Shown: one piece after another, positions 21,280 through 55,021 of the stretch
Layout of the letters: each line of letters begins with the position of its first letter
Position numbering within the stretch: the first letter of the stretch is position 1
NCBI GenBank assembly: GCA_016196755.1
Contig: JACPXC010000062.1
Span: 45,043-109,042 of the forward strand
Direction: 5' to 3'
Source: Elusimicrobiota bacterium
GTDB taxonomy: Bacteria; Elusimicrobiota; Elusimicrobia; UBA1565
Length of the DNA stretch: 64,000 bases
The notes under the pieces: model-generated
Seen by the model: only the letters and a program-made list of their open reading frames with translations
Databases searched by the model: none
Told to the model about the DNA's origin: nothing
Position numbers and translations under genes: made by a program

Positions 21280-21321
21280 CGGTGAGCGCGGCGCCCACGG
21301 GTATGATATCATCGATTCCGG

Positions 21322-24190: not shown

Positions 24191-24244
24191 CGGCGGTCAT
24201 GTCGGCCGTTTCCACTTCCTGATACATTATCCCCGCTGGTCAAG

Positions 24245-26874: not shown

Positions 26875-26897
26875 CGACGCTTCTCGGCGCTCCCAGC

Positions 26898-28025
26898 CTA
26901 TGAAGGTCCATGGGGCGCGAGCACGAGGTCCAGCTGGCGCGCGAGGACGGCTGTCGAATAGCGGCGCTCGCAGAACTCCCGCGCGGCGGTGTGGACGCGT
27001 TCCAGCCGGACCCGGTCGCCCAAGAGCCGGAAGAGCTTATCGGCGTCCAGCTCGTCGCATGACACCGCCGCCCCCGCCTCCAGCGCTTCACGATAGGGTT
27101 CGACACGAGACGCGACCGTGACCGCCCCCATCGCGCTGTACTCGACGAACTTGGTCGCCGACCTGCATCTGTTGAACTCATCCTTGACCAGAGGCGCCAG
27201 CCCCACGACCCAGTCCTTGGTGTTGAGCATCTCGCGGAAGCGCCGATAGCCGCGCACCGCCGGCGTCGCGAGGACCTGCCGGCGCACGGCCGGCGGCCAG
27301 CGGATCTCCGCAAGGTCTCCGATCGATTCAAAGCGCCAGTCCGGATGCTCGCTCAAGAACCGCAGCAATGACGGAAGAACGACCTTCAGGTCCCGGATAT
27401 GGCTGATAGTGCCCATAAACCCAAGGGTCTTCGACGAATTGAGGCTCTTGGCCCGGCCCACGCCGGGATAGGGGCAGTAGATGCCTGAAAAAGTCCGCGC
27501 CGCCGGAAAGCGGCCGCGCATGAAGTCTTCAAGGGGCTTCGTCGAGCAATAGACCAGGTCGGCTCTCCTGGCCAGGGCTTCGCGGCAGCCGACGACAAGG
27601 GGAGCCAGATGGGCTTTCCGCTTCGCTGCCGGAAGATCAGGCGGCAGGTCGAAGAGGTTGTCGTCGATATGGAAGACGGTCTTCACTCGGCGCGGTTTCG
27701 CCCAGTCAAGGATCTGGTCGTAGAGCGGCCCGCCGTAACGGGAGAAGACCACGGTCTGCGGCTGGAAACCTGCGATGGCGGCCAAGACATCCGGACCGCG
27801 GCCGGCCTCCACGAGGGCGGCGAGCTCACCCTGCGAATAGACCAGCCCCGCTCGCGCGCCGCCGCTGAACTGGTCGGCCAGCGGGATCTCGAAGGAGATG
27901 CTGAAGGTCGGGCCTCGATCGTCTACGAGAAAGACGGTTCGCTGAGGCGCTCCCGGCTCCCCAAGCAGCGTCCCTCCTGCCCGCGGCGCCAGCAAGCCCT
28001 TAAGAAAACCCCTCAAGCTCCCCAC
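26898..28025 (-). CDS. GT-B glycosyltransferase (group-1-like)
   Basis: C-terminal TKFVEYSAMGAVTVASRVEPYRE (E..E) and GT-B layout. Confidence 0.5.
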   Translation of the reverse strand: MGSLRGFLKGLLAPRAGGTLLGEPGAPQRTVFLVDDRGPTFSISFEIPLADQFSGGARAGLVYSQGELAALVEAGRGPDVLAAIAGFQPQTVVFSRYGGPLYDQILDWAKPRRVKTVFHIDDNLFDLPPDLPAAKRKAHLAPLVVGCREALARRADLVYCSTKPLEDFMRGRFPAARTFSGIYCPYPGVGRAKSLNSSKTLGFMGTISHIRDLKVVLPSLLRFLSEHPDWRFESIGDLAEIRWPPAVRRQVLATPAVRGYRRFREMLNTKDWVVGLAPLVKDEFNRCRSATKFVEYSAMGAVTVASRVEPYREALEAGAAVSCDELDADKLFRLLGDRVRLERVHTAAREFCERRYSTAVLARQLDLVLAPHGPS

Positions 28026-28029
28026 TGGC

Positions 28030-29106
28030 TTAGGCCTGGGTCCGGCTCCAGCGAGCCAGCTCCTCGAGGCCTTCCTGCAGGGAGGTCCGCGGCGTCCAGC
28101 CCAGGAGCGCGCGGGCCTTGGCGATGTCGGCGGTAGCGTGCCGGACGTCTCCCAGGCGGAACTGGCCGGTGACGGCGATGGTCCGCTCCGGGTCCTTGCC
28201 GAAGATGCGGCAGAGCAGCCGGGCCGCCGAGAGGATGCTGACCGGCCGGCCCGACCCCAGGTTGATGACCGTGCCGCCCGCCGTCCCGGCGGCGATGCCG
28301 CTCAGTATCCCGGCGACGACGTCGTCGGCCGCCACGAAGTCGCGGATGATTCCGCCATCCTCGAAGACGGCAAGAGGTTGATTCTTGAGCAAAAGCGAGC
28401 AGAAGACCGATAAGACGCCGGTGTATGGGTTGCGCAGGCTTTGGCCGGCGCCGTAGACGTTCTGCAGCCGGAAGACCAAGGCCTTCTCCCCTAGGGCCGA
28501 TTGGGTGAGCAGATGCTCCTGCATCAGCTTGGTGGAGGCATAGATCGAGACCGGCGACGCCGGCGTCGATTCCACCGCGGCCAAGGGCTCGGAGAGCCGC
28601 ACGGCCTTCCCGTCCTCGTAGGCCGCGGGGTCGAAGCGGCCCGCGGCCAGGTCCTCTCCGCGGCGCGCGCCGGGCACCACGACCTGGCCGTCGGCCCGGC
28701 GCCACGGGCCTTCGCCATGGACCGCCCGCGAGGAGGCCAGGATCACTTGCCCGAGCTCGCCCGCGCCGGCGATCAACGCCTCCAAGAGGATGGCGGTGCC
28801 GTCCACGTTCACGCTGCAATAGCGCTGCAGCTCGTCTCGGGACTGTCCGGTGCCGGTCTCCGCGGCCAGATGGACCACATGGGTCGGTTTGAATTCCGCG
28901 ACCGCATCCTTGATGCTTCCGGCGTCGCGCAGGTCATATCGGAGGCAGGACACGTTGGAGGCGAAGTCCGGGAAAGCCGCGTCCGGCCCATGTACTTGCT
29001 CAGTGAGGTCGTCGATCACGCAGCATCGGTGGGCCGGGTCCTTCTGGAGCTCCCGGACCAGTTTAGTCCCGATAAATCCCGCGCCGCCGGTGATCAGGAA
29101 CCTCAT
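28030..29106 (-). CDS. NAD-dependent nucleotide-sugar epimerase/dehydratase (SDR family)
   Basis: MRFLITGGAGFIGTKL Rossmann motif and catalytic YxxxK (YASTK). Confidence 0.85.
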   Translation of the reverse strand: MRFLITGGAGFIGTKLVRELQKDPAHRCCVIDDLTEQVHGPDAAFPDFASNVSCLRYDLRDAGSIKDAVAEFKPTHVVHLAAETGTGQSRDELQRYCSVNVDGTAILLEALIAGAGELGQVILASSRAVHGEGPWRRADGQVVVPGARRGEDLAAGRFDPAAYEDGKAVRLSEPLAAVESTPASPVSIYASTKLMQEHLLTQSALGEKALVFRLQNVYGAGQSLRNPYTGVLSVFCSLLLKNQPLAVFEDGGIIRDFVAADDVVAGILSGIAAGTAGGTVINLGSGRPVSILSAARLLCRIFGKDPERTIAVTGQFRLGDVRHATADIAKARALLGWTPRTSLQEGLEELARWSRTQA

Positions 29107-29981
29107 CGCCCGGCGGCCTGCCGGGCCCTCTTGGCCATATAGACTTCCCGGTGAGGGACAAATCCCTTGGCGCGGTCCGCGAGAAATTGCCAGCTGCGCA
29201 GCACGAAGCCCAGGGCGCCGGAGACCCTTGAGCGCCCCTCGAGGTCGCGCAAGAGAGACGGGCGGAAGTAGCCCAGCCTGATCTGCTCTTCCACCTCGGC
29301 GCGCCCCAGGGCGCCTTCCTTCAGCATCAGCCGGACCTCCTCGTACCAGACCTCCGCGTTCCTATTCAACGGAAACACCCAGGGCTGCGTGCTCATATCG
29401 GTGTAGTGGATATTGCAGGTCGTCGCGTCCAGATGCTCCAGGCTGTTCCAGCGGAAAGGGACCGCGTAGCGGATCTCCGGCTCCTTAAGGAGGCAAAGGT
29501 CGAACATCAGGCCCTGGTAATCGTATCTCGCCTCATCCAGGCCCCCGATGATGTCGTCGATCCTCCAATCCAAGCGCGCGCAGTCCATGACCATCACGGC
29601 GCACTGTTTGGCGCGCTTGCCGGGCGCCCCAAGCTTCAGGGCGGTATGACTCTGCTCTTGGCTCAACTCTTCCTGCACGATCACCTTGGCGCCCTTGAAG
29701 TCCAGCTCCCAAAGCTCCCGGATATCCTTCATGACCAGCATGTCGGCGTCCATATAGATGGCCCGCCCTCGATACCCCGCCAAGGCAGGGATGCAGAAGC
29801 GGCTAAACGAGAACCCCGTCCTCTGAGTCTGCCGCGGATCTTTGGGCACCCGGATCGGCAGGTCGCACATGGGGATGACTTCCACCGGCAGCGAGGCGTG
29901 CCGCTTGATGGAATGCTCCAGCACCTTCACGGCCAGCAGCTGGGATCTGTCGGTTCCTACGAAGACCCGGACCGCTTCCAC
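29103..29981 (-). CDS. Glycosyltransferase family 8-like (nucleotide-diphospho-sugar transferase)
   Basis: IYMDADMLV DxD motif, GT-A fold, similar to LPS glucosyl/galactosyltransferases. Confidence 0.6.
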   Translation of the reverse strand: MEAVRVFVGTDRSQLLAVKVLEHSIKRHASLPVEVIPMCDLPIRVPKDPRQTQRTGFSFSRFCIPALAGYRGRAIYMDADMLVMKDIRELWELDFKGAKVIVQEELSQEQSHTALKLGAPGKRAKQCAVMVMDCARLDWRIDDIIGGLDEARYDYQGLMFDLCLLKEPEIRYAVPFRWNSLEHLDATTCNIHYTDMSTQPWVFPLNRNAEVWYEEVRLMLKEGALGRAEVEEQIRLGYFRPSLLRDLEGRSRVSGALGFVLRSWQFLADRAKGFVPHREVYMAKRARQAAGR

Positions 29982-29991
29982 TACTCCTCCC

Positions 29992-31095
29992 TCATAAAGA
30001 GCCCTCTATGTATTGCGCGATCCGGCTTGCCCCGTCGCCAGGCAGACAGACGCGGTCCCGAAACCCGCGGGCCGACGCTTCCAGGCGAGGGCCCTCGCGC
30101 CCATCCAGCGCTTGGCCGACGAACTCGTTCCAGCCTTTTGAGCTTCGGATGATCGCAAGAGGCTCATAGAGAGGCACGGGGATGTCGTAGGCCGCCACCG
30201 CGACCGGCTTGCCCATGCAGACCGAGTCAAAAACGGTCGTGGAAGGCGTCGTGATGACCGCGTCGGCGGCCTTGATGAGGGCTGGGGCAGTATAAGGCTC
30301 CCAGACCGGATCCTTGGGATCGGCGAGCATCAGGTTGGGCGAGGCCGGCAGCCTGCCGCCGAACCGCTCCGACAGCCAACGGCCGGAATGATGCGGCTTG
30401 ACGAGGAACGAGACGGCCGGAAAGGCTGCCGCCGCGGCCTCGAGGTCCGCGAGGAACCGCTCCCGATAGCCCCCGTCATAACGGCTCCAGTGCAGGTTCT
30501 CGAACACGACGACCAGCTTATCACGATGAAAAGGGAGCTTGACGTCGGGCACGCGCGCGGGCTCGCGGACTTTCGGGCACCCGACCGGCACGCAGCGTCT
30601 TTTGATCGCCTCGGGGACCCGCGGATCCAGTCCCGAGAGCGGACCCCAGGTGAAGATTATATCCGAAGCGAAATCCACGCGCTGAGGCGGATACTCGGCG
30701 TCATAGTAGGTGAGGCCGATGTTCTCAAGCCCATGCTGGAGCGTGAAGGTGCGCAGCCCGCACAGCCTGGCCATGCGCGTCAGCCAATACCCTCGGGCGT
30801 GAGGGCGCGCCGTGGTGTCGCAAGCGGTGACGAGCGCCGAGCTGCGCAGCAGCGCGGGGAGGAGCCTTAAGCCCAGAGCGGAGCCTACGAAGGTCTCAAA
30901 GGCTGGACTCCCAAGCGCCGCCGACGTGCGCGGCGAGCTCGCGCGCAGCCTGGGGTCGAGGAGCGCCAAGACCCGGAAGCCGCGCTCAGACAGCGCCTCC
31001 GCCACGGGCAAGAGCAGGTCAAGGTCCGTGCCCTGATAGAAGTATAGAGCCGCCGAGCGGCATATCGTAGAATGAGCCGTTTCCACGCGCCCCAT
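29992..31095 (-). CDS. Hypothetical polysaccharide-biosynthesis protein (TagB/KpsS-like fold suspected)
   Basis: No signature recognised with confidence. Its position in the glycan locus and the C-terminal region HHSGR...PSTTVFDSVCMGKPV are loosely reminiscent of glycerophosphotransferase or capsule transferases. Confidence 0.3.
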   Translation of the reverse strand: MGRVETAHSTICRSAALYFYQGTDLDLLLPVAEALSERGFRVLALLDPRLRASSPRTSAALGSPAFETFVGSALGLRLLPALLRSSALVTACDTTARPHARGYWLTRMARLCGLRTFTLQHGLENIGLTYYDAEYPPQRVDFASDIIFTWGPLSGLDPRVPEAIKRRCVPVGCPKVREPARVPDVKLPFHRDKLVVVFENLHWSRYDGGYRERFLADLEAAAAAFPAVSFLVKPHHSGRWLSERFGGRLPASPNLMLADPKDPVWEPYTAPALIKAADAVITTPSTTVFDSVCMGKPVAVAAYDIPVPLYEPLAIIRSSKGWNEFVGQALDGREGPRLEASARGFRDRVCLPGDGASRIAQYIEGSL

Positions 31096-32473
31096 GCTGT
31101 TTAATTCACTCGAGTATCTGACCCTGCTGGCGCTCTCGACCCTTCTCTATTGGCTCGCCCGAAGCCAAGAGTCGCGCAACGCCATCCTACTCGTCGGCAG
31201 CCTGATATTCTATGCCAGTTGGAGCGTCCCTTATCTGGGCCTGCTGCTCGCGGTCCTGTTCCTGAACTGGTTCATCGCCCTTCGGCTGAGCCCCTCGCGG
31301 CCCTACTTGCTGACCACGGCCCTAGTCGCCAGCCTCGGCGTCCTAGCCTACTACAAATACGCGAATTTCTTGCTCGAAAACCTTGGGGCCGTTTTGCGGG
31401 TCTTCGGTGAGGGGTCCCCCCGAACCTCCGTCTCGGTGCTGCTCCCGTTGGGCATCTCGTTCTATGTCTTTCAGATCATCGCCTACACGATAGACGTCTA
31501 TCGAGGGGATATCGAGCCGGAGGAGAAGTTCTCCGTGGTCGTCCTCTTTACCTTGTTCTTCCCGCAGCTCATCGCGGGGCCCATCTGCCGGGCCAGCGAG
31601 CTCATTCCGCAGTTGAAGACCAAGCAGACCTTCCGGCTCGCCGACCTCGTGGACGGGTCGTTCATGCTGCTGGCGGGTTTCGTGCTGAAATCCTGCTTCG
31701 CCGACGGTCTGGCGCCCTACGTGGACGTCATCTTCAGATCGCCCGAAGGGTACTCCGGCCTCGACAACCTCCTCGGCACCGCGGCTTTCGGGGTCCAGAT
31801 CCTCTGCGATTTCTGGGGCTATTCCACCATGGCGGTGGGCTCAGCCCGGCTCTTCGGCCTGCGGGTCCCATTCAACTTCAACCTGCCTTACGACGCCCTC
31901 TCTATCCGGGATTTTTGGAAACGCTGGCATATCACGCTCAGCCGCTGGCTCAAGGATTACCTGTTCATCCCCTTGGGAGGATCCCGGACCTCTTCAAGAC
32001 CCAAGCTGTACCGCAATCTGCTGATCACGATGCTGCTCGGCGGGCTGTGGCACGGAGCGAACTGGACCTTCGTGGTCTGGGGGGCGATCCACGGCGGGGC
32101 CCTTATGGTGAACCGGGCCTTCGGCGAACGCCGCCCCCGACTCGAGCTGCCGAAGAGCCTTTGCTGGCTCTTGACCATGGCCGCCGTCTTCCTCGGCTGG
32201 GTCTTTTTTCGCGCGCCGAGCGTCGACCAGGCCTGGCGGCAGCTCGGCCTTATCGTCCTTCCATCCCGTCATTGGTGGCGCACCGCGCTCGACCTGCGTT
32301 TCTTCGAGCTGCTCGCGCTGTTTGTGCCGGCGCACCGGCTGATCCACAGATACAGCTATGAGCGGCCGATCAGTCAGGAAGGATCGGCGGCCTACTGCCT
32401 GGTGCCCGCGCTCGTGGTCTTTTCCATCGTATATTTCGTCAGAGGCTCGGATTTCATCTATTTCCAGTTCTGA
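31094..32473 (+). CDS. MBOAT-family membrane O-acyltransferase (AlgI/DltB/PatA-like)
   Basis: Conserved MBOAT His (LLGGLWHGANW...AIHGG) and a polytopic membrane protein. Confidence 0.85.
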   Translation: MLFNSLEYLTLLALSTLLYWLARSQESRNAILLVGSLIFYASWSVPYLGLLLAVLFLNWFIALRLSPSRPYLLTTALVASLGVLAYYKYANFLLENLGAVLRVFGEGSPRTSVSVLLPLGISFYVFQIIAYTIDVYRGDIEPEEKFSVVVLFTLFFPQLIAGPICRASELIPQLKTKQTFRLADLVDGSFMLLAGFVLKSCFADGLAPYVDVIFRSPEGYSGLDNLLGTAAFGVQILCDFWGYSTMAVGSARLFGLRVPFNFNLPYDALSIRDFWKRWHITLSRWLKDYLFIPLGGSRTSSRPKLYRNLLITMLLGGLWHGANWTFVVWGAIHGGALMVNRAFGERRPRLELPKSLCWLLTMAAVFLGWVFFRAPSVDQAWRQLGLIVLPSRHWWRTALDLRFFELLALFVPAHRLIHRYSYERPISQEGSAAYCLVPALVVFSIVYFVRGSDFIYFQF

Positions 32474-33692
32474 TAGACCCATCCTCCGGCGGGCGGCGGC
32501 GGCGATCGCGCTCTCAGCGGCCGCGATCCTCTTTTGCGAGGCCCTGGTGCGCCTCCTCTCCCCGCCGAGCCAAGATTGGGCTCCGCGGACAGCCAAGGAG
32601 CTCATCGCGCAGGCCCGCGGCTACCTGCCTGCGTACGCGCGGGAGAAGGAGAACCGCTTCATCATCCATAACGTCGCCCTGCTCTCCGAGCATCCAGACC
32701 CGGCCTCGGTCACGCTGGCCTTCGTGGGCTCGTCGAGGACGAGGTTCCTTCGTCCCCGCGGGCTTCTGGGCTTGGACGCCGTGGTCGTCGCCGGCAATTC
32801 CTATAACGAGATCCCTTACGGGACGCTCGTGGAGCTGAACATCATCAGACGGCTGTTCCCGGGCCTCAAGACCGTGTTCGTCGAGGCTCCCCTCTTGATG
32901 CGCCGTTCGCGCCTCAGGCTGACTACGGACCATGAGAAATACCTTTTCGCGCTCAAAGAACTCGAGCCTTTGCGGCGCCGGCTTCCGGGGGGCGAGGAGC
33001 TCTCGCGCTTCCTCGCCTTCCACCAGGCGAATGTCGGGGGGTTCCGGCCGGAGCTGAAGCTCTTCAGAGCCCGCCGCGAGCTCCAGCTCTCCGAGCTCTT
33101 CAAGAGGCTTGTCCTCAAACGCGCTCCGGAGCGGGCGGAGCCCGAGCGGGCGAAGCTTGCCGCCAACGGGGAGTACCGCGAGCTCCAAGGGCCGCTGCTT
33201 GCGCGCCGGGATTGGCCCCCCCGCATCCAGCCGTCAAGCGAGAAGATCTGGCGCATCCAGGGGGCCGGACGCGACATTCCGGGAGACCACGTCTTCGAGC
33301 TTTGGGCCCTTTGGGCGCGGCAGGAAGGCTTGGAGCTGGTGTTCTACGACCCCCCCGTGCGCGGCGACCTCCTGGACGTCAAGGCGGGCCTGGGCCTGAA
33401 GAGCCACCATGAGGACCTCGTGCGCTTATCCGGGCGCTACGGGCTGCCCGTCGTCATCCTCAACGACTCGAAGCTGGGCTATGGGGACCAATGGTCCCTG
33501 TTCAGCGACGAGGACCACCTGGGGACATGCCTAGGCTCGCTGCTCCTGACCACGGCCATATGGGATTCTTATCGCGATTGGAAAGAGACCGGAAAACTCG
33601 TCCATCGGGTCCCGCTATCCAAGGCTCTTGAAGCCCTGCCCCGGGTCGAGAATCCTTGCCCGGAGACTTCTCTAGAGGGGTTCGGATCATGA
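32358..33692 (+). CDS. Membrane-anchored partner of the MBOAT protein (AlgJ/DltD/PatB-like O-acetylation accessory protein); start uncertain
   Basis: Single N-terminal TM helix (AAAIALSAAAILFCEALVRLL) followed by a soluble domain. The track start at 32358 overlaps the MBOAT gene by 116 nt. A later non-ATG start near 32480-32545 is plausible. Confidence 0.4.
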   Translation: MSGRSVRKDRRPTAWCPRSWSFPSYISSEARISSISSSDRPILRRAAAAIALSAAAILFCEALVRLLSPPSQDWAPRTAKELIAQARGYLPAYAREKENRFIIHNVALLSEHPDPASVTLAFVGSSRTRFLRPRGLLGLDAVVVAGNSYNEIPYGTLVELNIIRRLFPGLKTVFVEAPLLMRRSRLRLTTDHEKYLFALKELEPLRRRLPGGEELSRFLAFHQANVGGFRPELKLFRARRELQLSELFKRLVLKRAPERAEPERAKLAANGEYRELQGPLLARRDWPPRIQPSSEKIWRIQGAGRDIPGDHVFELWALWARQEGLELVFYDPPVRGDLLDVKAGLGLKSHHEDLVRLSGRYGLPVVILNDSKLGYGDQWSLFSDEDHLGTCLGSLLLTTAIWDSYRDWKETGKLVHRVPLSKALEALPRVENPCPETSLEGFGS

Positions 33693-33791
33693 TGAGGTCC
33701 GTCCTCGACAAGGTCTCCGTCTTCCTCGCCGATCCCAACGGCTATAACCTGTTCTCGAGGGCCCTCGGCTCCAGCCGCGCCTGCGCGGTCT

Positions 33792-34703
33792 ATGCCAGGG
33801 AGAGCGATGTCAATTGATTACAATGAGGTCTCAATGGAGGCCGCTGCCGAGATGAGCGCCGCCGTTTCGCGCGTGTACAGCTCCGAAAGCGAGTTGCGCC
33901 ACCCACGCGCGCTGGCCTCGGCGCTTCGGCGCGACGCCGGCGAGGCATTCCGGCTCGGCTGGACGCTGTTTCGCCGGGATATCTCGCTGCAGCGCCGGCA
34001 GGCCTTCTTGGGCGCCTCCTGGGTGCTGCTGCCGCCGGTGCTGCTGGCGTTGACGCTGCGAGCCGCGCAGGAATCGCAAGTCTTCCGCATCGCGCCGACC
34101 GAGCTCCACTACCCTCTCTACGTCATCCTCGGCATGGTGTTTTGGCAGACCTTCTCGGACGCCCTGCAGGCGCCGATCCAAGGGATTACGTCGGCTCGGC
34201 CGTTCCTGGGCAAGATCCACTTCCCCCGCGAGGCGATCGTGGTCTCCAAGTTCTACCAATCGCTGTTGCACCTCGCGCTGAAGGCTTTTCTCGTGGCCGG
34301 CGTCTTCCTCTGGCTCGAAACGCCGCTTCCGGCCGGCGCCGTCTGGGCCGCCGCGCTGGTCTGGCCCTTGCTGCTGCTTGGAATGGGACTGGGCATGCTT
34401 TTGGCGCCCCTCGCCGTCGTGTTCGCCGACATCGGTAAGGCCGCGTCTATCCTCTCGGGCGTCTGGTTCTTCCTGACGCCGGTCATATTTCCCCGTCCAG
34501 CCGAAGGGCTGTTCGGATCGCTGATGCGCTGGAATCCGGTCACGCCGCTGCTCGAGGCCTGCCGCGACGCCGTCGCTCTCGGCGTTCCTCCTCAGCAGCC
34601 GTCCTGGCCGTTTGCCGCCGCGGCGGCCGCGGCCGCCTTCATCATCGGCTGGCTCGTCTATCGGCTGTCGCTGTCGTTCGCGGTGGAACGGTCGCAATCC
34701 TGA
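33792..34703 (+). CDS. wzm: ABC-2 type polysaccharide exporter permease (Wzm/KpsM-like)
   Basis: ABC2_membrane signature (FRRDISLQRRQAFLGASWVLL...) and 6 TM helices. Confidence 0.8.
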   Translation: MPGRAMSIDYNEVSMEAAAEMSAAVSRVYSSESELRHPRALASALRRDAGEAFRLGWTLFRRDISLQRRQAFLGASWVLLPPVLLALTLRAAQESQVFRIAPTELHYPLYVILGMVFWQTFSDALQAPIQGITSARPFLGKIHFPREAIVVSKFYQSLLHLALKAFLVAGVFLWLETPLPAGAVWAAALVWPLLLLGMGLGMLLAPLAVVFADIGKAASILSGVWFFLTPVIFPRPAEGLFGSLMRWNPVTPLLEACRDAVALGVPPQQPSWPFAAAAAAAAFIIGWLVYRLSLSFAVERSQS

Positions 34704-34713
34704 CGCGAGCGGC

Positions 34714-35934
34714 CTACGAGCTTTCCCAAAGGTGCGGCTGGAAGAGCGAGCCGCGCGTCAGCCCGTCGCGAGGAGCCACCCGGAACCGGACGCCGTCGCG
34801 CGCGTCGTAGCTGAGCAATCGGCTTTCCCTGATATTGATCTTCATCTGATAATGGCCCGGGCCTAGATTGAGCACCGGCAGCCGGCAGCGCAGCTCCCCG
34901 ACACCCTCCCGGACCGCCAAGCCCTCGCTGGCATCCATGTTGTGCAGGCGCAGCATCCACCCCTCTCCCCAGCCGCTCTCCCGGACAACGGCGGTCACGC
35001 GCAGTCCGCTCAGGGCCTTCGCGCTGTGGACCTTCAGGCAAAGCATGACCGGCTCGCCGGTGGTAGGCAGGTCCAGGATGTTGCCGTCCCCCCCCCTGAA
35101 ATACACTTCGAGTATCCGCAGAACGCCGTCGGCGGACGCCGCCGAGGGCGCCTCCGGCGACTCCGCGCCCTCCATCGCCAGAGCTTGCTCGTAGCGACCG
35201 AGCGCCTCCTCGAGCGAGCCCAACGAGCCCATGCGGCCGGCGCGAAGGTAAAGGCCACGCTCGCAGGCCGCTCCGAGGGCCCATGGATTATGGGAGACGA
35301 ACATAAGGGCCAGTCCGCCCTTAAGCATCTCGTCGAGCTTCCGATAGCATTTCAGCCGGAACTTCATATCCCCCACGGCGAGGGTCTCGTCGATCAGGAG
35401 CAGGTCGGGCCGGGAGAACACCGAGCATGCAAATCCCAGGCGAGCCTGCATCCCCGAGCTGTAGGTCCTCAACGGCGCGTCGACGGCCTCCCAGAGCTCG
35501 GCGAAGTCGACTACCGCGTCGAATACCTTGCGTATCTCCGCTCTTGCAAGCCCCAGCAACGACAGGTTGAGCGCGACGTTCTCCCGCCCGGTCAAGAGCG
35601 GATGGAAGCCCGCGCCCAGCGCCAACAGCGGCGCGACGCGGCCCCGGACCTCGACGCGCCCGGCGTCGAGCTTGATCAAGCCGCTGATCAACTTGAGCAG
35701 CGTCGTCTTGCCGCTGCCGTTGCTGCCCATCACCCCGAGCGACTCGCCCGGCGACAGCTCGAAGGAAACATCGCGAACCGCCCAAAACTCGCGCCCGCGC
35801 AGCCGGGCGCCCGAGCGCCGCAGGCCGAGCACCTCGCCCAGCGCGTCGACGGATCCATAGGCCATGGAGAGGCCGGCATGGCGGCAGAACTTCTTCGAGA
35901 CGCCCTCGACCCTCAGCACCCGCTCAGGCCGCAT
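34714..35934 (-). CDS. wzt: ABC polysaccharide exporter ATP-binding protein with C-terminal carbohydrate-binding domain (Wzt-like)
   Basis: Walker A GSNGSGKTTLLKLISG, signature LSGG-like motif, Walker B LLLIDE, plus a ~150-aa C-terminal beta-rich extension as in Wzt of capped O-antigen systems. Confidence 0.8.
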   Translation of the reverse strand: MRPERVLRVEGVSKKFCRHAGLSMAYGSVDALGEVLGLRRSGARLRGREFWAVRDVSFELSPGESLGVMGSNGSGKTTLLKLISGLIKLDAGRVEVRGRVAPLLALGAGFHPLLTGRENVALNLSLLGLARAEIRKVFDAVVDFAELWEAVDAPLRTYSSGMQARLGFACSVFSRPDLLLIDETLAVGDMKFRLKCYRKLDEMLKGGLALMFVSHNPWALGAACERGLYLRAGRMGSLGSLEEALGRYEQALAMEGAESPEAPSAASADGVLRILEVYFRGGDGNILDLPTTGEPVMLCLKVHSAKALSGLRVTAVVRESGWGEGWMLRLHNMDASEGLAVREGVGELRCRLPVLNLGPGHYQMKINIRESRLLSYDARDGVRFRVAPRDGLTRGSLFQPHLWESS

Positions 35935-37402
35935 CGCCCCCCCGTGTCAGCAGGAACAGCGGACGGTCCGAGGCCGCTTCGCCGATCTTCTCGATTTTAG
36001 GGAACAGAGTCTTCGCGGCGCCGAGGAAGCGCTCCAGGTCGTAGGGACGGCTTTGGGGACGGCCCGGCATCCCGGTCCATTGGCGCGCTTTGCGATCGTC
36101 GCCGGTCGGGAACTCGACGATCGCGTAAGCGGAGCAAAGCGACGCAAGCTTGAGCACGATGGGCTCCAGGTCGCCGTATTCCTCGGTCCGGTGATAAAGA
36201 TGATGAATCACGCCGAGCAACGAGACGCACTGGTAGCGCCCCTCAAGCTCTGAATACCGGCGCAGCTCGAAACGGCAGCCCAGCCCGAGCCTCTCGTTGA
36301 TCTCCGAACAGCGGCGGACGTACTCCGGATTGTAATCGACCCCGTGCGCTCGCGCCTTTTGACGGATCGCCGCCGAGAAGACGTGCATCCCCATGTTCGA
36401 GCCGATGTCGAGGTACTCGCTGACTCCGAGGCGTGAAAGAACCGCGTCGACCGCCTTCCATTTCCGGTAGGACGGAGCCCATTCGTGCCCTGCCTCCAAT
36501 GCGCGGATCGAGTCCGGGCCGACGTCGAAATTCTGATACCCGCGCACTTGGTAGACGGGCCCGTCCCGGCGCACCGAGGATACGTCGGCGGGCTCCAGAG
36601 CCGGCGGATCATCCTCGAGCGAATCCAAGGCGCTCTCCAGCGACCGCCTTAGCGCCCGCCAACCCTCCACCGTCCTCAAGTCGTTGGCAAGCGCCGCCGT
36701 CCCGACCGCTTCGAACGGCGTGCCGCGCAAGGCCGCGAGAGCCTCCTTCTCGGCGCGGTCGAAGGAGGAGCTATCGTCCTGGATCGCCGATCCCCACGCG
36801 AGCAGCGCGCGTCTCCCTAAGCCGAACACAGCGAGGTGGATCAGCAGGGAAAGCTGGATGAAGCGGTTCTTCGCCGCCACCAGGTTCTCGCGGGGGCTCG
36901 GAGGGACGCCTTGCGGAGGGGAGACGAAAAGCAGCGCGTTGCCGCCGAAATCCACCCATCGCAAGCGGCCGTCGCGGCCCCACATGTAGTTCAATTCCAG
37001 CCCGCCGAGATCCCAGAGCACGAGGTTCCTCGGGATCAGCGCCTGCTGCAGGGATGCGACCTCGGCCAGCGCTCGCAGCAGCTCGCTCGGATAAGGCCGC
37101 ACGGGACGGAGCTCTTCATATGGATATTCCAGGACCCGATCGTCCGACACGCGGATCGGGGGGAGGGCCGGGTGATCGATCCTCGCCGACTCCAGGGCCC
37201 GGGTCATGAAGAGGAACCGGCGCGCGTAGGGCGTGAGCGCCTTGGCGACCACCTCGCGCCCAGCCCGGCGCGCGCGGTAGACCGGCCCATCCTTGCCTTG
37301 GCCGAGGAAAATCAGGCCCCGGTATCCCAGACGCGTCAGGGTCCAACGTCCCCGCAGCCTCTGTCCGAGGCGTACCCACCGCCTGCGCGTCGACTCTGTC
37401 AA
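35924..37402 (-). CDS. Bifunctional kinase-like / SAM-methyltransferase protein (WbdD-like glycan chain terminator candidate)
   Basis: N-terminal half has a Gly-rich loop GQGKDGPVY, a VAK Lys and a DFG motif (RWVDFGGN). C-terminal half has class I methyltransferase motifs (LDIGSNMG, VDYNPEYV, LLGVIHHL). TTG start; 11-nt overlap with the wzt-like start. Confidence 0.55.
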   Translation of the reverse strand: MTESTRRRWVRLGQRLRGRWTLTRLGYRGLIFLGQGKDGPVYRARRAGREVVAKALTPYARRFLFMTRALESARIDHPALPPIRVSDDRVLEYPYEELRPVRPYPSELLRALAEVASLQQALIPRNLVLWDLGGLELNYMWGRDGRLRWVDFGGNALLFVSPPQGVPPSPRENLVAAKNRFIQLSLLIHLAVFGLGRRALLAWGSAIQDDSSSFDRAEKEALAALRGTPFEAVGTAALANDLRTVEGWRALRRSLESALDSLEDDPPALEPADVSSVRRDGPVYQVRGYQNFDVGPDSIRALEAGHEWAPSYRKWKAVDAVLSRLGVSEYLDIGSNMGMHVFSAAIRQKARAHGVDYNPEYVRRCSEINERLGLGCRFELRRYSELEGRYQCVSLLGVIHHLYHRTEEYGDLEPIVLKLASLCSAYAIVEFPTGDDRKARQWTGMPGRPQSRPYDLERFLGAAKTLFPKIEKIGEAASDRPLFLLTRGGDAA

Positions 37403-37433
37403 GGCGCCCTCAATCGCGGGCGCGTCAGCATAA

Positions 37434-38474
37434 TCATAGGACCGGGTCGGCCACGCCCAGCATCGCGCGCAGCCTCGCCGCGTAGTTCTCCCAGCTCAAG
37501 TGCTCGACGGTCCGCCGCACGTCGGCGCCGAGGCGATACGCTTGCTCGATGAGCTCGGCGACGCGCTCCGCCGGGGCCTGGGGGTCGAAAAGGAAACCGT
37601 TGTCGCCGTGCCGTATGATGTCCGGCGCGAAGCCGGTCGCGCTCGCCACCGGCGCCGCGTTGCACATCATCGCCTCGATCAGCGGGATCGGCCCGCCTTC
37701 CAGCACGCCCGGAGAAACGAACACGTCCATCCGCGCGTAATGGCGCGGATACTCCGAATAGGGCGCCTCGACGTACTCGAAGTTCGGCAATTCGCTCAAC
37801 TCGGCAAACCGAGGCCATTCGCGCCAGCGACGTCCGAGCATGATGAATTTACGCTGGGGTAGCCGGCGCGCCAGTTCCAAAACGAGCGCCGGGCGCTTGC
37901 GCTCGTAATACGCGGTTGAAAACCCGACCGCTCCAAGGCCGCGGCGATGCGGCTCGAACAACGCGGGGTCCGCGGCCGCCGGGATCCAGGCCAGCCGCCG
38001 TTCCTGCACGCCGAGCGCTCTCAGCAGGCCCACCGCGGCGGAATTGGGGGCGATGACGCGCGTCGCCCTATTGAAGGCGTAGACCAGCTCTTCCTCGCCG
38101 ACCGTCAACTCCCTCGGATGGGTGTAATGCACGAGCAACTTCGCTCCCCAGGCCGCGGTATTGAGCTTGAGGAACTTGGGCAACAGACCGTAATGAGCGA
38201 GGAAGTAGGCGCGCGCCGGCGGAGGATCGGCGATGGCGTAATGAAAGGCCGTCTTTCCCCCGAACCGCGCCGCCGTTTCCCGGCAGATCGCCTCCAAGAT
38301 CCAGCCACGCGCGGGTTCCGGCACCACGAACGCCAGGTCGTAGAGGGGCGCCGGGGTCGCGCCGAGCAGCCGGGAGACCAGATAGCGGGCCCGCGTCCGA
38401 CGATAGGCCCAAGGATCGAAAAGCGGGGCCACCGTGATGCCGCGACCGCCTGTATGAAGGCCGGCAGCTGACAT
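37434..38474 (-). CDS. Glycosyltransferase family 4 (GT-B)
   Basis: GT-B layout and C-terminal Glyco_trans_1 region (VSPGVLEGGPIPLIEAMMCNAAPVAS). Confidence 0.7.
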   Translation of the reverse strand: MSAAGLHTGGRGITVAPLFDPWAYRRTRARYLVSRLLGATPAPLYDLAFVVPEPARGWILEAICRETAARFGGKTAFHYAIADPPPARAYFLAHYGLLPKFLKLNTAAWGAKLLVHYTHPRELTVGEEELVYAFNRATRVIAPNSAAVGLLRALGVQERRLAWIPAAADPALFEPHRRGLGAVGFSTAYYERKRPALVLELARRLPQRKFIMLGRRWREWPRFAELSELPNFEYVEAPYSEYPRHYARMDVFVSPGVLEGGPIPLIEAMMCNAAPVASATGFAPDIIRHGDNGFLFDPQAPAERVAELIEQAYRLGADVRRTVEHLSWENYAARLRAMLGVADPVL

Positions 38475-38549
38475 GGCTCCATCCTACAATTCTTCCCGAG
38501 CACCCGCCATCGCGTTTCACTTTGGTAGACTGGAGCAGGCCCGCGCGCC

Positions 38550-39272
38550 ATGCCGACCCCGCCGACCGAATTCCTAGTGCCCGACGTCGCCGTCGAGTAC
38601 ATCCTGCTGCAGCGGACCGCCCTACAGCGTTATCCGCGCCTGCTCCGCGCGCTAAGCATCCCCTACCGACCCTGCGTTTCCTTTTTCGATTCTCGGCTGC
38701 GACGCCGCAGCATCAAGGCCGGTTTCGTCCGAAGCATAGTAGAGGATTTCGAAACGCTCAAGCCGTTCTTGCCGACGCGGGCCCGCGCCATCCTCGACAT
38801 CGGCTGCGGCGTGGCGGGCATCGACGTCCTTCTGCACCGGCACTACGCCGTCGACTCCGGCGGCCCGCAGTTCTACCTGGTCGACAAGAGCGAGGTCGCC
38901 GCGAAGATTTACTACGGTCTTGAGCCGAAAGCCGCCTTTTACAACTCCCTCGACGCGGCGCAGCAGTTGCTCGCCGCCAATGGGGTCCCGCCCTGGAAGG
39001 TGCGCGCGCTCTGGAGCCGCGACGACGGCCTGATCGACGTCGCGAGCGGCGCCGTCGACCTAGTCGTTTCGCTGCTCTCTTGGGGGCATCACTACCCGGT
39101 GGAGACCTATCTCGACGCCGTCTGGGCCGCGCTCGCGACCGGCGGAGCGCTGATCCTCGACGTTCGAAATGGGACCGGGGGCGAGGACGCGTTGCGGCGC
39201 AGGTTCGGGCACATCGAAGCGCTTGCCGTTGACTCGAAAAAGACCCGGTTCCGCTGCGTTAAGGGCTCCTGA
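38550..39272 (+). CDS. Class I SAM-dependent methyltransferase
   Basis: Motif I ILDIGCGVAGIDVLL and FkbM/Methyltransf-like layout. Confidence 0.65.
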   Translation: MPTPPTEFLVPDVAVEYILLQRTALQRYPRLLRALSIPYRPCVSFFDSRLRRRSIKAGFVRSIVEDFETLKPFLPTRARAILDIGCGVAGIDVLLHRHYAVDSGGPQFYLVDKSEVAAKIYYGLEPKAAFYNSLDAAQQLLAANGVPPWKVRALWSRDDGLIDVASGAVDLVVSLLSWGHHYPVETYLDAVWAALATGGALILDVRNGTGGEDALRRRFGHIEALAVDSKKTRFRCVKGS

Positions 39273-39280
39273 CTAGCGAG

Positions 39281-39298
39281 CGCGCAAACCCTTGCGCG
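39281..39298. terminator. Hairpin CGCGCAA-ACCC-TTGCGCG between convergent genes
   Basis: Perfect 7-bp stem with a weak T tract (TCTT). Confidence 0.3.
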
Positions 39299-39322
39299 TC
39301 TTAGGCTTGCGGACGGGGCTCC

Positions 39323-41035
39323 TCATCGCCGCAGGGCCTCGGCCGCGGGGTCCGCGAAGTCCTCGGCCAGCCGGTCAAGACGCGAGTCGAAGGGGTCCAG
39401 CGCCCGCGCCGCGGCCAGGGCGGCGCGGCCCGCGGGCAAGGAGTCCGAGCCGGCCCAGCGGGCCCGGCGCAGCTCGGCAAGCGCCAAGAGGCGCAGGAAC
39501 TCCGGCTCGGCGGGCCGGAGGCGGGCGCCGGCCAGGGCCGTGTCGCGCGCGCCCTCCAGCAGCGCCCCCCGTCCGGACGGCGGGGCGGCGCCGGCCGCGT
39601 CCCAAAGCAGGTTCATGAGATCCGTCCTGAAGGGCACGGACTCCGGGAGGCCGTCGACGGCGGCTCGGAAGTGATCCGCCGCCTCCCGCGGCCGCCCCTC
39701 GCTCCGCGCCAGCCGTCCCAAGAAGGCATGGCGCTCGGCGGGGATGCGGCGCAGCCCGGCCCAGGCGTTCCAGAGCGTCCCGCTCAGGAAGAGCACGGCG
39801 GCCGCGACCGCCGCGCCCCGCCCGCCCTGCGAGGGACGCGCCCCCAGCGCGGCGCCCGCCAGGGTGGCGGCCAGGAAGGCCACCGGCAGGATCGGGAGGT
39901 TGGTCTTGCTGAACAGAAAGATCGCAAGGAGTCCTCCCCCGGCCGCGGCGCCGGCCGCTCCCGGCGCCAGGGCCAGGCGCAGGCCGGCGATGTGCAGCCA
40001 GGCGTAGGCCGCCGCGCCCAAAGCGCCGAGGGCCGCCAGGACCTCCGCCCAGTCGTTATGGGCGTGGGGATAGACCGAGCCGGGAGGCGCCGCCGCGGCC
40101 AATGACTCTGAGCGCCGGCGCCTGTATAGGTTGCCGAAGGTCCCCGGCCCCTGGCCCAGGAGCGGCCGCTCGGCCAGGCCCCGCGCGGCGACCAGCAGGG
40201 CCGGCAGGCGCGTGCCCGCGGGGCGGGAACCCTTGAAACCGATCCAAGCCGTCGCCGCCGCCGCCGCCGCCAAGCAGCCGACCACCAGAGTCCATGCCGC
40301 GCGCCGGGCCCAAGGCCGCCCATCGCGCCACAGGAGCAGCCCGCCGCCGCAGGCGGCTCCCAGCCAGGCTCCCCGGGTCCCCGAGGCGGCCAGCGCACCC
40401 GCCGCCAAGGCCGCTGAAGCCGACGCGGCGACGCGCTCGGCTCCCGGCCGCGCCGCCAGCGCCCAGGCCAGGGCGGCGGGGGCGGCCAACGCCAGGTAGC
40501 CGCCCAGGGCCACGGGATGGCCGAAGAGGCCGCTGGCCCGGTCCAATTCGCCGCGGACCAGGAAGAACGCCCACCGAGGCGCCAACACCTGGGCCAGCGA
40601 GACCAGCGCGACCAGCACGGAGCCCGCGGCCAAACAGACGCCCAGCCCGCGGTCGGCCCCCGGTTCCGAGCGGCCCGCGGCCACGCCCAGGTAAAATCCG
40701 GCCAGCACGGCCGCCAGCCCGGTCAGCGAGGCTAGCGGCTCGAGCTCCGGGCCATAGAGGCTGGCGGGCAGGTCCGCGGAAACCGCCGTGGAGGCCAGCG
40801 CGGCCAGGCTGAAGGCCGCCAACGGAGCCTCCAGGCCGACCGCCAGCGAGCCGGCACCCCCGGCCGCCCAGGCCAGCGCTCCGGCGGCGGCGGCTGCCGC
40901 GGCCAGCAGGCACTTGGGAAGGAGCGCGGCGTCGCGCAGGCCGAAGAAAACCAGGCTCGGCGCGGCCAATGCGGCGGCGCAGGCGGCCCGGTAGGGGAGC
41001 ATGGCCAAGGAATCCCTAGAGCGGGATGTTCCCAT
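39323..41035 (-). CDS. Wzy_C (O-antigen ligase/polymerase-like) membrane protein with C-terminal TPR-like domain
   Basis: Motif SVYPHAHNDWAEVLAALG (Wzy_C), 10 or more TM helices, C-terminal helical repeats. Paralogous in architecture to the protein at 14610..16208. Confidence 0.65.
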   Translation of the reverse strand: MGTSRSRDSLAMLPYRAACAAALAAPSLVFFGLRDAALLPKCLLAAAAAAAGALAWAAGGAGSLAVGLEAPLAAFSLAALASTAVSADLPASLYGPELEPLASLTGLAAVLAGFYLGVAAGRSEPGADRGLGVCLAAGSVLVALVSLAQVLAPRWAFFLVRGELDRASGLFGHPVALGGYLALAAPAALAWALAARPGAERVAASASAALAAGALAASGTRGAWLGAACGGGLLLWRDGRPWARRAAWTLVVGCLAAAAAATAWIGFKGSRPAGTRLPALLVAARGLAERPLLGQGPGTFGNLYRRRRSESLAAAAPPGSVYPHAHNDWAEVLAALGALGAAAYAWLHIAGLRLALAPGAAGAAAGGGLLAIFLFSKTNLPILPVAFLAATLAGAALGARPSQGGRGAAVAAAVLFLSGTLWNAWAGLRRIPAERHAFLGRLARSEGRPREAADHFRAAVDGLPESVPFRTDLMNLLWDAAGAAPPSGRGALLEGARDTALAGARLRPAEPEFLRLLALAELRRARWAGSDSLPAGRAALAAARALDPFDSRLDRLAEDFADPAAEALRR

Positions 41036-42569: not shown

Positions 42570-42974
42570 TCACCCTCCCACCAGCTCGATGAGGACACCG
42601 CCGCAATGCTTGGGATGCACGAAGCAGATCTGGTGGCCGCGGGCGCCCTCGCGCGGCGCGGCCTCGAGCGGCGGCGCGCCGCCCTTTCTCAAAACGTCCA
42701 TCGCGGGTGCTACGAGAGGTGCGGCGAAGGCGAGGTGGTGGAGGCCGGGCCCTCGGGCGCCGATGAACTTGGCCACCGAGGCCTCGGGGGCGGTGGGCTC
42801 GAGCAGCTCGATGGCAGTCCCCCCGAGCTCGCTCGGGTCGACGAGGAAGGCCACGCGCACCTTCTGGGAAAGGACTTCCTCGCGATGGACCTCGACGAGG
42901 CCGAGCAGTTCCTTGTAGAAACGCGCCGACTCATCGAGCGAGCTGACCGCCACCCCGATGTGGTCGATCTTCAC
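42570..42974 (-). CDS. mce: Methylmalonyl-CoA epimerase (glyoxalase/VOC family)
   Basis: [10 protein letters not shown]...HLAF...HICFV metal ligands and a 134-aa VOC fold. Confidence 0.8.
   Translation of the reverse strand: MKIDHIGVAVSSLDESARFYKELLGLVEVHREEVLSQKVRVAFLVDPSELGGTAIELLEPTAPEASVAKFIGARGPGLHHLAFAAPLVAPAMDVLRKGGAPPLEAAPREGARGHQICFVHPKHCGGVLIELVGG

Positions 42975-45444: not shown

Positions 45445-45448
<4 letters not shown>
44345..45448 (-). CDS. GAF-domain / HD-GYP phosphodiesterase
   Basis: N-terminal GAF domain; C-terminal HD-GYP (HDIGYVG...[14 protein letters not shown]). Trimmed from the fused 903-aa track ORF to [14 protein letters not shown] overlap with the pilB stop. Confidence 0.8.
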
Positions 45449-48863
<3,415 letters not shown>

Positions 48864-48871
<8 letters not shown>

Positions 48872-52225: not shown

Positions 52226-52226
52226 T

Positions 52227-55013: not shown

Positions 55014-55021
55014 ATTCGACG

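Follow-up and report, generated by a model that had tools for sequence, protein, structure and literature searches.

A kinase-methyltransferase fusion protein beside a Wzm-Wzt exporter in an Elusimicrobia glycan cluster: a putative methyl-phosphate capping enzyme without a coiled-coil ruler

The genes described here encode what we propose, at roughly even confidence, to be an ABC-dependent glycan export module in which a methyl-phosphate cap, added by a 492-aa kinase-methyltransferase protein (KinMT), ends elongation and is read by the carbohydrate-binding domain (CBD) of the neighboring ATPase, Wzt. Wzm and Wzt form an exporter, and the Wzt CBD belongs to the type that recognizes a cap at the chain end. 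Judging from its sequence, KinMT most likely acts last in the cytoplasm, adding methyl-phosphate just before the glycan is exported, and at this locus the methyl-phosphate is probably the cap read by Wzt. To our knowledge, methyl-phosphate capping of glycans is established for only two architectures, those of WbdD and Klebsiella O7 ORF6; in each, the methyltransferase precedes the kinase, and a coiled-coil ruler carries both and determines chain length. If our reading is correct, KinMT is a third architecture, with reversed domain order, an apparently different kinase lineage, and no ruler, which suggests that the fusion of kinase and methyltransferase for methyl-phosphate chemistry arose more than once, and which poses the question of what governs chain length when no ruler is present.

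Gene order and the Wzm-Wzt exporter

The window, the whole stretch of 64,000 nucleotides that was analyzed, contains a 22-kb polysaccharide cluster in a high-GC MAG labelled Elusimicrobia (Table 1). Encoded in the cluster are an initiating sugar-phosphate transferase, GT4 and GT2 proteins, methyltransferases, two radical-SAM enzymes, further glycosyltransferases, an epimerase/dehydratase, GT8 and MBOAT proteins, Wzm, Wzt, KinMT, a GT4 protein, a methyltransferase, and a Wzy_C protein, the last a candidate WaaL-type ligase at the cluster end. No Wzx-like ORF was found anywhere within the window.

Table 1 Features of the glycan cluster, with positions numbered from the first nucleotide of the window and residues numbered within each protein.
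Feature	Position	Strand	Basis
Glycan biosynthesis cluster	18812..41035	.	Pfam scans
wzm, ABC-2 permease	33792..34703	+	Pfam ABC2_membrane
wzt, ABC ATPase, 406 aa	34714..35934	-	ABC_tran and Aquifex aeolicus Wzt match
Wzt carbohydrate-binding domain, residues 262-406	34717..35151	-	Profile and fold match
KinMT, 492 aa, kinase then methyltransferase	35924..37402	-	ORF, TTG start
KinMT N-terminal basic helix, residues 3-24	37331..37396	-	Helix in AF2 model
KinMT eukaryotic-type protein-kinase-like domain, residues ~25-262	36617..37330	-	
KinMT class I SAM methyltransferase domain, WbdD type, residues ~273-488	35939..36586	-	
GT4 glycosyltransferase, 346 aa	37434..38474	-	Glycos_transf_1, 6.3e-18
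Stand-alone methyltransferase, 240 aa	38550..39272	+	Methyltransf_23, 6.2e-5, below cut-off
Wzy_C/O-antigen-ligase-family membrane protein, 570 aa	39323..41035	-	Wzy_C, 1e-11, 45.3 bits, above cut-off

Transcription on the minus strand runs from GT4, the first gene of the run, through KinMT to wzt; on the plus strand, wzm closes a run composed of MBOAT, a 381-aa unknown, a 42-aa ORF, and wzm itself, the true start of which is likely at 33834, giving 289 aa. The convergence of wzm and wzt (stop codons 10 nt apart) and the 11-nt overlap of the KinMT stop with the wzt start (35924-35934) had both been proposed in the initial annotation and are borne out, the convergence by the ORF coordinates and by an independent gene call; the 492-aa gene had also been placed immediately downstream of wzt, which holds in plus-strand coordinates only, the gene lying upstream of wzt on the minus strand. 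The genes came out alike in an independent assembly with its own gene caller: KinMT in its long 492-aa form, wzm as a convergent gene of 289 aa, and the 240-aa methyltransferase gene, which is divergent from GT4 and is another candidate for making a methyl cap. Where wzm and wzt converge, the sequence shows no convincing terminator or hairpin, and a search for sigma-70-like promoters found none. A minus-strand ORF (33831-34697) was considered as a co-directional wzm and rejected: it has no family match, and the plus-strand ORF matches Pfam ABC2_membrane (6.2e-11, 42.7 bits, above cut-off) and, weakly, galactan Wzm and KpsM models.

The nucleotide-binding domain of Wzt (residues ~46-252; ABC_tran, 4.9e-20) has TagH teichoic-acid exporters as best NCBIfam matches, all far below cut-offs; the best PDB match of the protein is Aquifex aeolicus Wzt (8dku/7k2t; E 4e-53, residues 48-369). 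The C-terminal extension, for which about 150 aa and a carbohydrate-binding type had been claimed, comprises 145 residues and is a real Wzt CBD by profile and by fold. Searches with single sequences were uninformative for the CBD and for KinMT, so that profiles were needed for both: the PDB search with the CBD sequence found no CBD and only a chance racemase match, and its Pfam Wzt_C score was 24.6 bits, below the curated cut-off of 30.4 bits. A 21-sequence CBD profile matched only Aquifex Wzt CBD entries in the PDB (E 5e-8), and the domain has the beta-sandwich fold of solved Wzt CBDs; the fold match singles out the four known Wzt domains that bind a cap, other beta-sandwiches being clearly behind. 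Full-length Wzt homologues with PF14524 number in the thousands (43-51% identity). At the three closest homologue loci, the two exporter genes share a strand, with wzm first; in two of these three, a methyltransferase gene directly follows wzt, which matches the usual placement of terminators beside wzt, and these methyltransferases differ in type from KinMT.

The two domains of KinMT

The AF2 model of KinMT (pLDDT 86.4) consists of two domains with a low-confidence linker at 265-272, and it contains a basic N-terminal helix that we regard, on the strength of the model, as a candidate membrane-association element; the leader has nine Lys/Arg against one Asp/Glu, and almost all of 32 family members have a leader of similar basicity. 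NCBI lists the gene product as a 442-aa protein (P0001) that begins at an internal GTG, so that the Gly loop and the greater part of the N-lobe are missing. The long TTG start is right, since homologues conserve the Gly loop and the Lys, and it was also given by the independent gene call. The public annotation is truncated and labelled methyltransferase only, which hides the kinase half. With the single KinMT sequence, a PDB search gave only a chance beta-lactamase match, and Pfam and NCBIfam gave no kinase match and only sub-threshold methyltransferase matches.

Kinase motifs are present as G34-x-G36-K-D-G39, V52-A53-K54, D131...N138, and D151-F-G153, and the Gly loop, Lys, Asp, Asn, and DFG Asp are invariant across 29 family members. 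The nearest sequence and fold matches of the kinase are true protein kinases (CK2, YabT, ACVR1, IRAK4), and in the PDB its profile matches CK2alpha; Pfam Pkinase, the sole recurrent family, is matched by 13 of the 29 members, none of which has an APH or choline-kinase match at E up to 1. With the WbdD kinase, the alignment covers only 45 columns (17% probability); the family kinase profile finds no methyltransferase-then-kinase protein, and a last word-indexed homologue search with the kinase alignment returned nothing. At the level of sequence, the kinase is not detectably of the WbdD lineage beyond the catalytic core.

For the methyltransferase domain, the closest solved relative is WbdD (hhalign, 98% probability, E 1.6e-12), and the family methyltransferase profile retrieves proteins of 540-715 aa that are colinear with WbdD, methyltransferase then kinase. 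WbdD H132, H133, and R203 align with the family-invariant H400, H401, and R480, and WbdD D82 also aligns with an invariant residue of the family. In WbdD, H132, H133, and R203 are essential for phosphate methylation, and the O8 enzyme and other sugar methyltransferases are said to lack the set (PMC3482155). An equivalent of WbdD Y16 was looked for in KinMT and none was found; Y289, tried as its counterpart, is given no support by the global alignment.

A coiled-coil ruler is absent from the AF2 model, in which the longest helix has 22 residues, and KinMT ends 4 residues past the methyltransferase domain, without a WbdD-like C-terminal region. Of the picture drawn in the initial annotation, a WbdD-like terminator with a kinase-like domain (Gly loop, VAK Lys, DFG) ahead of a class I methyltransferase, both domains stand, as do the motifs, which are conserved in homologues, and the order opposite to that of E. 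coli O9a WbdD, KinMT having its kinase at ~25-262 and its methyltransferase at ~273-488. Aminoglycoside and choline kinases, named there as relatives of the kinase half that would, outside any glycan context, tell against this picture, gave no match; the relatives are eukaryotic-type protein kinases, and all loci are glycan clusters. Likeness to WbdD holds for the methyltransferase and its phosphate-methylation residues; it is not detectable for the kinase lineage, and it fails for the ruler and for the family neighbors, which are mostly of the Wzx type.

Family context and proposed function

The KinMT family is rare, with about 30 full-length representatives (clusters) in 1.8 billion proteins; hosts are candidate-phyla bacteria, an Asgard archaeon, and others. 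The order of kinase then methyltransferase, of which a survey had been suggested, is conserved in every homologue found (33/33 two-domain relatives), and the two parts are kept together in that order as a fusion or as adjacent genes. All KinMT loci examined are glycan clusters. An exporter gene abuts KinMT in eight of the 11 loci with usable flanks, a Wzx-type flippase in six of the eight and an ABC transporter in only two; in an unrelated Asgard locus (L005), KinMT and an ABC-2 transporter gene overlap by 8 nt. The GT4 gene immediately upstream of KinMT recurs in L001, L002, and L004, and in L009 the upstream GT4 gene is separated from KinMT by a gene for a methyltransferase; Wzy_C proteins occur near KinMT in L002 and L004.

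We propose that the basic N-terminal helix would hold KinMT at the inner membrane face, where the enzyme would phosphorylate a sugar hydroxyl of the lipid-linked glycan and then methylate the newly added phosphate, the two reactions together forming the final cytoplasmic step ahead of export. At this locus, the methyl-phosphate would be a non-reducing-end cap that halts elongation and is recognized by the Wzt CBD; chain length would be set by competition between KinMT and the elongating glycosyltransferases and not by a WbdD-style coiled-coil ruler. We infer a chain terminator for this locus only and not as a family trait, because at most homologous loci the neighbor is a Wzx-type flippase, an ABC transporter being present at only two. 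We know of no cap-dependent termination in Wzx pathways, so that the general role of the family, given its Wzx neighbors, may be modification and not termination. The other methyltransferases of the cluster and its two radical-SAM enzymes could make a different cap.

A possible, if tentative, alternative is that KinMT decorates an internal or side-chain residue with phosphate and methyl, joined or separate, and that the CBD reads the backbone or another cap, for example an O-methyl from the stand-alone methyltransferase. Such decoration would suit the Wzx-type flippases adjoining most family members, in clusters with many GT4 and methyltransferase genes, the lack of a ruler, the further methyltransferases of the present cluster, and the different type of methyltransferase that adjoins wzt at the loci of the closest Wzt homologues; it is harder to reconcile with the gene overlaps that tie KinMT to wzt here and to the ABC-2 transporter in L005, with the conservation of the WbdD phosphate-methylation residues, and with a CBD-bearing Wzt, which implies that a cap exists and for which KinMT is the closest candidate. 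Capping by KinMT might also be generalized: a speculative and rather doubtful reading is that the family is a ruler-free "completion mark" enzyme, the methyl-phosphate of which licences export of the finished lipid-linked glycan by Wzx-type or ABC-2 transporters. Export gated by a cap would then extend beyond ABC pathways with coiled-coil terminators, and the hosts would be candidate-phyla bacteria, an Asgard archaeon, and Elusimicrobia, whose surface glycans are almost unstudied. The family adjoins exporters of both kinds, flippase and ABC, in little-known lineages, and it offers a handle on whether export is more generally gated by a terminal mark.

Export of another lipid-linked product (teichoic-acid-like, or an S-layer glycan), with a CBD-like domain that is only structural or dimerizing, is unlikely: the TagH matches, the Wzt_C score under its cut-off, and a host that is an uncultured MAG with an uncharacterized envelope would allow it, and against it stand the specificity of the CBD fold match and the presence of a Wzy_C/ligase-family gene and an initiating sugar-phosphate transferase in the same cluster. 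Least probable is a regulatory protein kinase acting on a glycosyltransferase, the transporter, or itself, with the methyltransferase acting separately on a sugar hydroxyl, for the matches to true protein kinases and to Pkinase that favor it are of the same kind as those of the WbdD sugar kinase (PMC3482155), the kinase is always paired with the same methyltransferase, fused or in an adjacent gene, that methyltransferase carries the His-His-Arg set needed for phosphate methylation, and KinMT has no receiver or sensor domains.

Comparison with known capping and export systems

WbdD of E. coli O9a and K. pneumoniae O3 (PDB 4AZS, 4AX8, 4UW0) is a bifunctional methyltransferase-kinase chain terminator. 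Common to WbdD and KinMT are a eukaryotic-type kinase and a class I methyltransferase in a single polypeptide, the WbdD kinase having a eukaryotic-kinase-like fold and matches (PMC3482155), and a neighboring wzt that encodes a CBD. The order in KinMT is reversed, since WbdD has its methyltransferase at 1-210 and its kinase at 211-459 (PMC3482155). KinMT is shorter (492 aa vs. 708 aa) and lacks the C-terminal coiled-coil ruler and the membrane- and WbdA-binding region of WbdD, having the basic N-terminal helix instead. Simple circular permutation of WbdD was rejected as the origin of KinMT, because the kinases are not detectably of the same lineage (poor alignment with the WbdD kinase; no methyltransferase-then-kinase proteins found by the kinase profile).

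Characterized ABC-pathway terminators all sit in a coiled-coil ruler protein (PMC11231755). In K. pneumoniae O7 ORF6, which installs methyl-phosphate, and in the Lcin_0519 family, for which methyl-phosphate is predicted, a kinase and a methyltransferase are found beside wzm/wzt and a glycosyltransferase (PMC11231755, PMC9758233). Compared by description, O7 ORF6 differs from KinMT in its order (methyltransferase then kinase), in a kinase that resembles the small-molecule kinase AmiN, and in its extra parts (carbohydrate-binding module, coiled coil, two GT2 modules); Lcin_0519, likewise by description, commonly has a coiled coil, unlike KinMT.

The Lani_1194/NoeA family, found in bacteria and a few archaea, has a conserved kinase-methyltransferase architecture with an N-terminal helix and is proposed to decorate secreted or envelope glycoconjugates (PMC9758233). 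It has about 2,000 homologues with different neighbors (PMC9758233), against about 30 clusters for KinMT; by description, it has Arg for the catalytic Lys and a remote Gly loop, whereas KinMT has an invariant Lys and a clear GxGKDG. In tblastn searches against 72,556 plasmids, pSymA included, the KinMT kinase half had no match; the methyltransferase half alone matched TIGR04290-type methyltransferases on Sinorhizobium pSymB-type replicons, and a 49-kb pSymA stretch, not established to hold noeA, gave no KinMT matches; a distant kinship of the two families is possible.

For the exporter, Wzt finds its best PDB match in Aquifex aeolicus WzmWzt (PDB 7K2T, 8DKU, 6O14), across nucleotide-binding domain and CBD alike; the two systems share an ABC-2 permease and an ATPase with a C-terminal beta-sandwich CBD, the identity of the CBD to that of Aquifex Wzt being 15-16%.

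Gene layout and export genes

The open reading frames of wzm, wzt and KinMT (the 492-aa kinase-then-methyltransferase protein) were all found where the initial annotation had placed them, and its account of wzm and wzt as convergent is borne out, with stop codons 10 nt apart. KinMT and wzt do overlap by 11 nt, but KinMT, described as downstream, lies upstream of wzt on the minus strand, in the order GT4, KinMT, wzt, with wzt last in the run; this error excepted, the observation is real, and the KinMT gene is tightly coupled to wzt. A separate assembly with its own gene calls (Logan SRR12113416, locus L008) shows the identical gene set, including the 492-aa form and an opposite-strand wzm of 289 aa. 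An antisense ORF competing with wzm (33831-34697) matches nothing and was rejected as an alternative gene.

Wzt has an ABC ATPase domain (residues ~46-252); among solved structures it is closest to Aquifex aeolicus Wzt (E 4e-53), in an alignment that reaches into the C-terminal domain. The extension alone falls below the Pfam Wzt_C cut-off (24.6 vs 30.4 bits), and a single-sequence PDB search with it returned nothing relevant. PF14524 is carried by thousands of full-length homologues (43-51% identity); a 21-sequence profile of the extension retrieved four PDB sequences and no others, each of them the Aquifex Wzt carbohydrate-binding domain (E 5e-8); and residues 262-406 are modelled by AlphaFold as a beta-sandwich (pLDDT 88.6). 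The extension is thus a carbohydrate-binding domain, as first annotated, and Wzt is of the real cap-reading type. The convergence with wzm is atypical: each of the three closest Wzt homologue loci has wzm ahead of wzt, both on one strand. Two of them carry a methyltransferase gene right after wzt, which fits the placement of terminators beside wzt; none of these methyltransferases is of KinMT type.

The module lies inside a ~22-kb glycan cluster encoding an initiating sugar-phosphate transferase, GT4, GT2, GT8 and further glycosyltransferases, methyltransferases, an epimerase/dehydratase and a Wzy_C/ligase-family protein. No Wzx-like flippase ORF was found across the whole window, so Wzm/Wzt is its sole exporter. 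Adjacent SPASM-domain and B12-binding radical-SAM enzymes hint at unusual sugar chemistry, e.g. C-methylation or epimerisation. The co-directional run ending in wzm, which comprises a DltB/AlgI-like MBOAT acyltransferase (NCBIfam 8.5e-45, under its cut-off), a 381-aa protein without family match and a 42-aa ORF, suggests that the permease is expressed together with an O-acylation step for the exported glycan.

Window GC is ~0.63-0.75, two lower-GC islands excepted: the first (0.57 vs about 0.70; response regulator, transposase, PIN-domain protein) is probably a mobile insertion, and the second (0.56) holds an ATPase gene. Further genes flanking the cluster are listed in the table.

Table. Coordinates of features in the window, in KinMT and in homologous loci
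Feature	Position	Strand	Remarks
Low-GC island	5683-8175
IS200-like Y1 transposase	6357-7208	-	in first island
PIN-domain protein	7507-8175	+	in first island
Weak PMT_2-like membrane glycosyltransferase	10411-11883	+	upstream of main glycan cluster
Second Wzy_C/O-antigen-ligase-family protein	13971-16208	+	745 aa; upstream of main glycan cluster
Glycan cluster	18812-41035
Radical-SAM pair	24245-26874	+	in glycan cluster
MBOAT to wzm run	31094-34703	+
wzm	33792-34703	+
wzt	34714-35934	-
KinMT	35924-37402	-	492 aa
GT4	37434-38474	-
Propionate/methylmalonyl-CoA block	41016-48934	-	directly past cluster; carboxyltransferase, MeaB GTPase, methylmalonyl-CoA mutase
GAF + HD-GYP-like protein	44345-47056		903 aa; inserted into preceding block
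Second low-GC stretch	52000-54000
AAA_14/DUF4143 ATPase	52227-53738	-
HAD-hydrolase fusion	53731-55431		downstream of AAA_14/DUF4143 gene
Another GT4	55984-57105		downstream of AAA_14/DUF4143 gene
KinMT basic helix	residues 3-24		AlphaFold model
KinMT kinase-like domain	residues ~25-262		AlphaFold model
KinMT linker	residues 265-272		AlphaFold model; low confidence
KinMT Rossmann-type methyltransferase	residues ~273-488		AlphaFold model
GT4, ABC-2 permease, ABC ATPase, KinMT (566 aa)	L005:6055-9488		Promethearchaeota MAG JBHLNF010000005.1
Convergent KinMT and Wzx-like flippase genes	L002:5431-8230		candidate phylum
Convergent KinMT and Wzx-like flippase genes	L004:7929-10797		candidate phylum
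Split kinase/methyltransferase genes	L007:7983-9391
Split kinase/methyltransferase genes	L018:2657-4548

Architecture and family of KinMT

NCBI annotates this gene as a 442-aa "class I SAM-dependent methyltransferase" that begins at an internal GTG; the Gly loop and the greater part of the kinase N-lobe are missing from it. The 492-aa form is correct, because homologues conserve the Gly-loop and N-lobe residues absent from the shorter one; public annotation therefore hides the kinase half. The AlphaFold model (pLDDT 86.4) has four parts; its longest helix is of 22 residues, the protein ends just past the methyltransferase, and the model contains no coiled-coil ruler.

In the kinase half, G36, D38, K54, D131, N138 and D151 (Gly loop, catalytic Lys, catalytic Asp and Asn, DFG Asp) are invariant in 29 members. 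A eukaryotic-type fold is indicated by Foldseek matches (ACVR1, EphA2, Csk, IRAK4), a domain profile against the PDB (CK2alpha best, E 2.5e-4) and Pfam Pkinase, matched by 13 of the 29; none matches APH or choline kinase models.

The closest solved relative of the methyltransferase half is WbdD, the E. coli O9a chain terminator, its sequence confirmed from the PDB copy: E 8e-4 with the whole-family profile; E 7e-7 with the domain profile, ahead of all other PDB methyltransferases; top among 350,542 chains in Foldseek (E 1.2e-7); and 98% probability (E 1.6e-12, 188 columns) in global profile alignment with WbdD 1-218. WbdD H132, H133, R203 and the SAM-binding D82 align with KinMT H400, H401, R480 and D356, all four invariant across the family. 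The first three are essential to phosphate methylation in WbdD, with no equivalents reported in the O8 enzyme and other known sugar methyltransferases (PMC3482155); their retention is the strongest argument that KinMT may methylate a phosphate.

An exhaustive profile search over 1.84 billion representatives gave 1,154 matches: only about 30 kinase-then-methyltransferase proteins of full length (~500 aa), a further 15 or so kinase-only pieces and, among the remainder, mostly methyltransferase-only matches. The last include 540-715-aa proteins colinear with WbdD (methyltransferase-then-kinase), and the methyltransferase domain is therefore common to KinMT and WbdD-architecture proteins. The kinase profile retrieved 33 proteins in the KinMT order and none in the reverse, which rejects a simple permutation of WbdD; judged from these profiles, KinMT seems to have arisen independently, by the joining of a related methyltransferase to another lineage of kinase. 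The halves are unfused at L007, L017, L018 and L019, where they remain adjacent, overlapping genes, kinase first.

KinMT in other genomes

For gene context, the analysis covered 7 loci from genomes and 11 from metagenomes, along with 3 contig look-ups; among the hosts are Patescibacteria, Saccharibacteria, an Asgard archaeon (Promethearchaeota MAG), a MAG of Rhodospirillales and unclassified bacteria. Wherever a locus was informative, it proved to be a glycan cluster. GT4 is the gene immediately upstream of KinMT in the window, L001, L002 and L004; in L009 a methyltransferase gene stands between the two. Of 11 loci whose flanks could be used, 8 have an exporter gene directly abutting KinMT; some loci are related to one another, which leaves about five independent instances. 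No exporter was found near KinMT in L006, L007 and L010. Six of the exporters are Wzx-type flippases (L001, L002, L003, L004, L009 and L014); an ABC-2 permease with ATPase occurs only in the window and Asgard L005. The L005 ATPase (305 aa) has a DrrA-C-like tail without Wzt_C, and its gene overlaps that of KinMT by 8 nt; L005 is a second, unrelated coupling of KinMT to an ABC-2 exporter. The convergent KinMT and flippase genes of L002 and L004, with overlapping 3' ends, mirror the convergence of wzt and wzm.

Proposed function and comparison with known systems

The initial proposal of a capped-glycan export module is supported in part: the cap-reading Wzt and the kinase fused to a WbdD-type methyltransferase stand. 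KinMT joins an intact kinase to a methyltransferase in which the residues for phosphate methylation are retained. At the inner face of the membrane it would first phosphorylate and then methylate a sugar on the lipid-linked glycan, with its basic N-terminal leader as the likely membrane contact, and the resulting methyl-phosphate would be the cap at this locus. That KinMT terminates the chain we regard as an even chance. The main rival, that it decorates the glycan instead, is favoured by the linkage of its relatives to Wzx and by the missing ruler, and is held to be less likely; all other alternatives, even jointly, are less likely still. Every characterised ABC-pathway terminator sits in a coiled-coil protein (PMC11231755), and no glycosyltransferase of the cluster (292-382 aa) would, to judge by size alone, be long enough for a coiled-coil ruler. 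The most interesting implication, a speculative one, is that marks gating export may also occur outside ABC pathways.

No description of the KinMT family was found in the literature, and tblastn of its kinase half against plasmid-borne sequences gave no similarity. The order in WbdD is methyltransferase, kinase, coiled coil (PMC3482155); in Klebsiella O7 ORF6 it is methyltransferase, AmiN-like kinase, carbohydrate-binding module, coiled coil and two GT2 modules (PMC11231755). Two more predicted kinase-methyltransferase families come from a Legionella kinome survey: Lcin_0519, beside Wzt/Wzm and often with a coiled coil, and Lani_1194/NoeA, with an N-terminal helix, Arg replacing the catalytic Lys and about 2,000 homologues (PMC9758233). 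By that description the KinMT family, with its invariant Lys and clear Gly loop, differs from Lani_1194, though a remote link may exist. On good sequence and structural grounds, the window locus is best filed as a probable variant on the theme of cap-dependent ABC export, with a rare, ruler-free kinase-then-methyltransferase enzyme.
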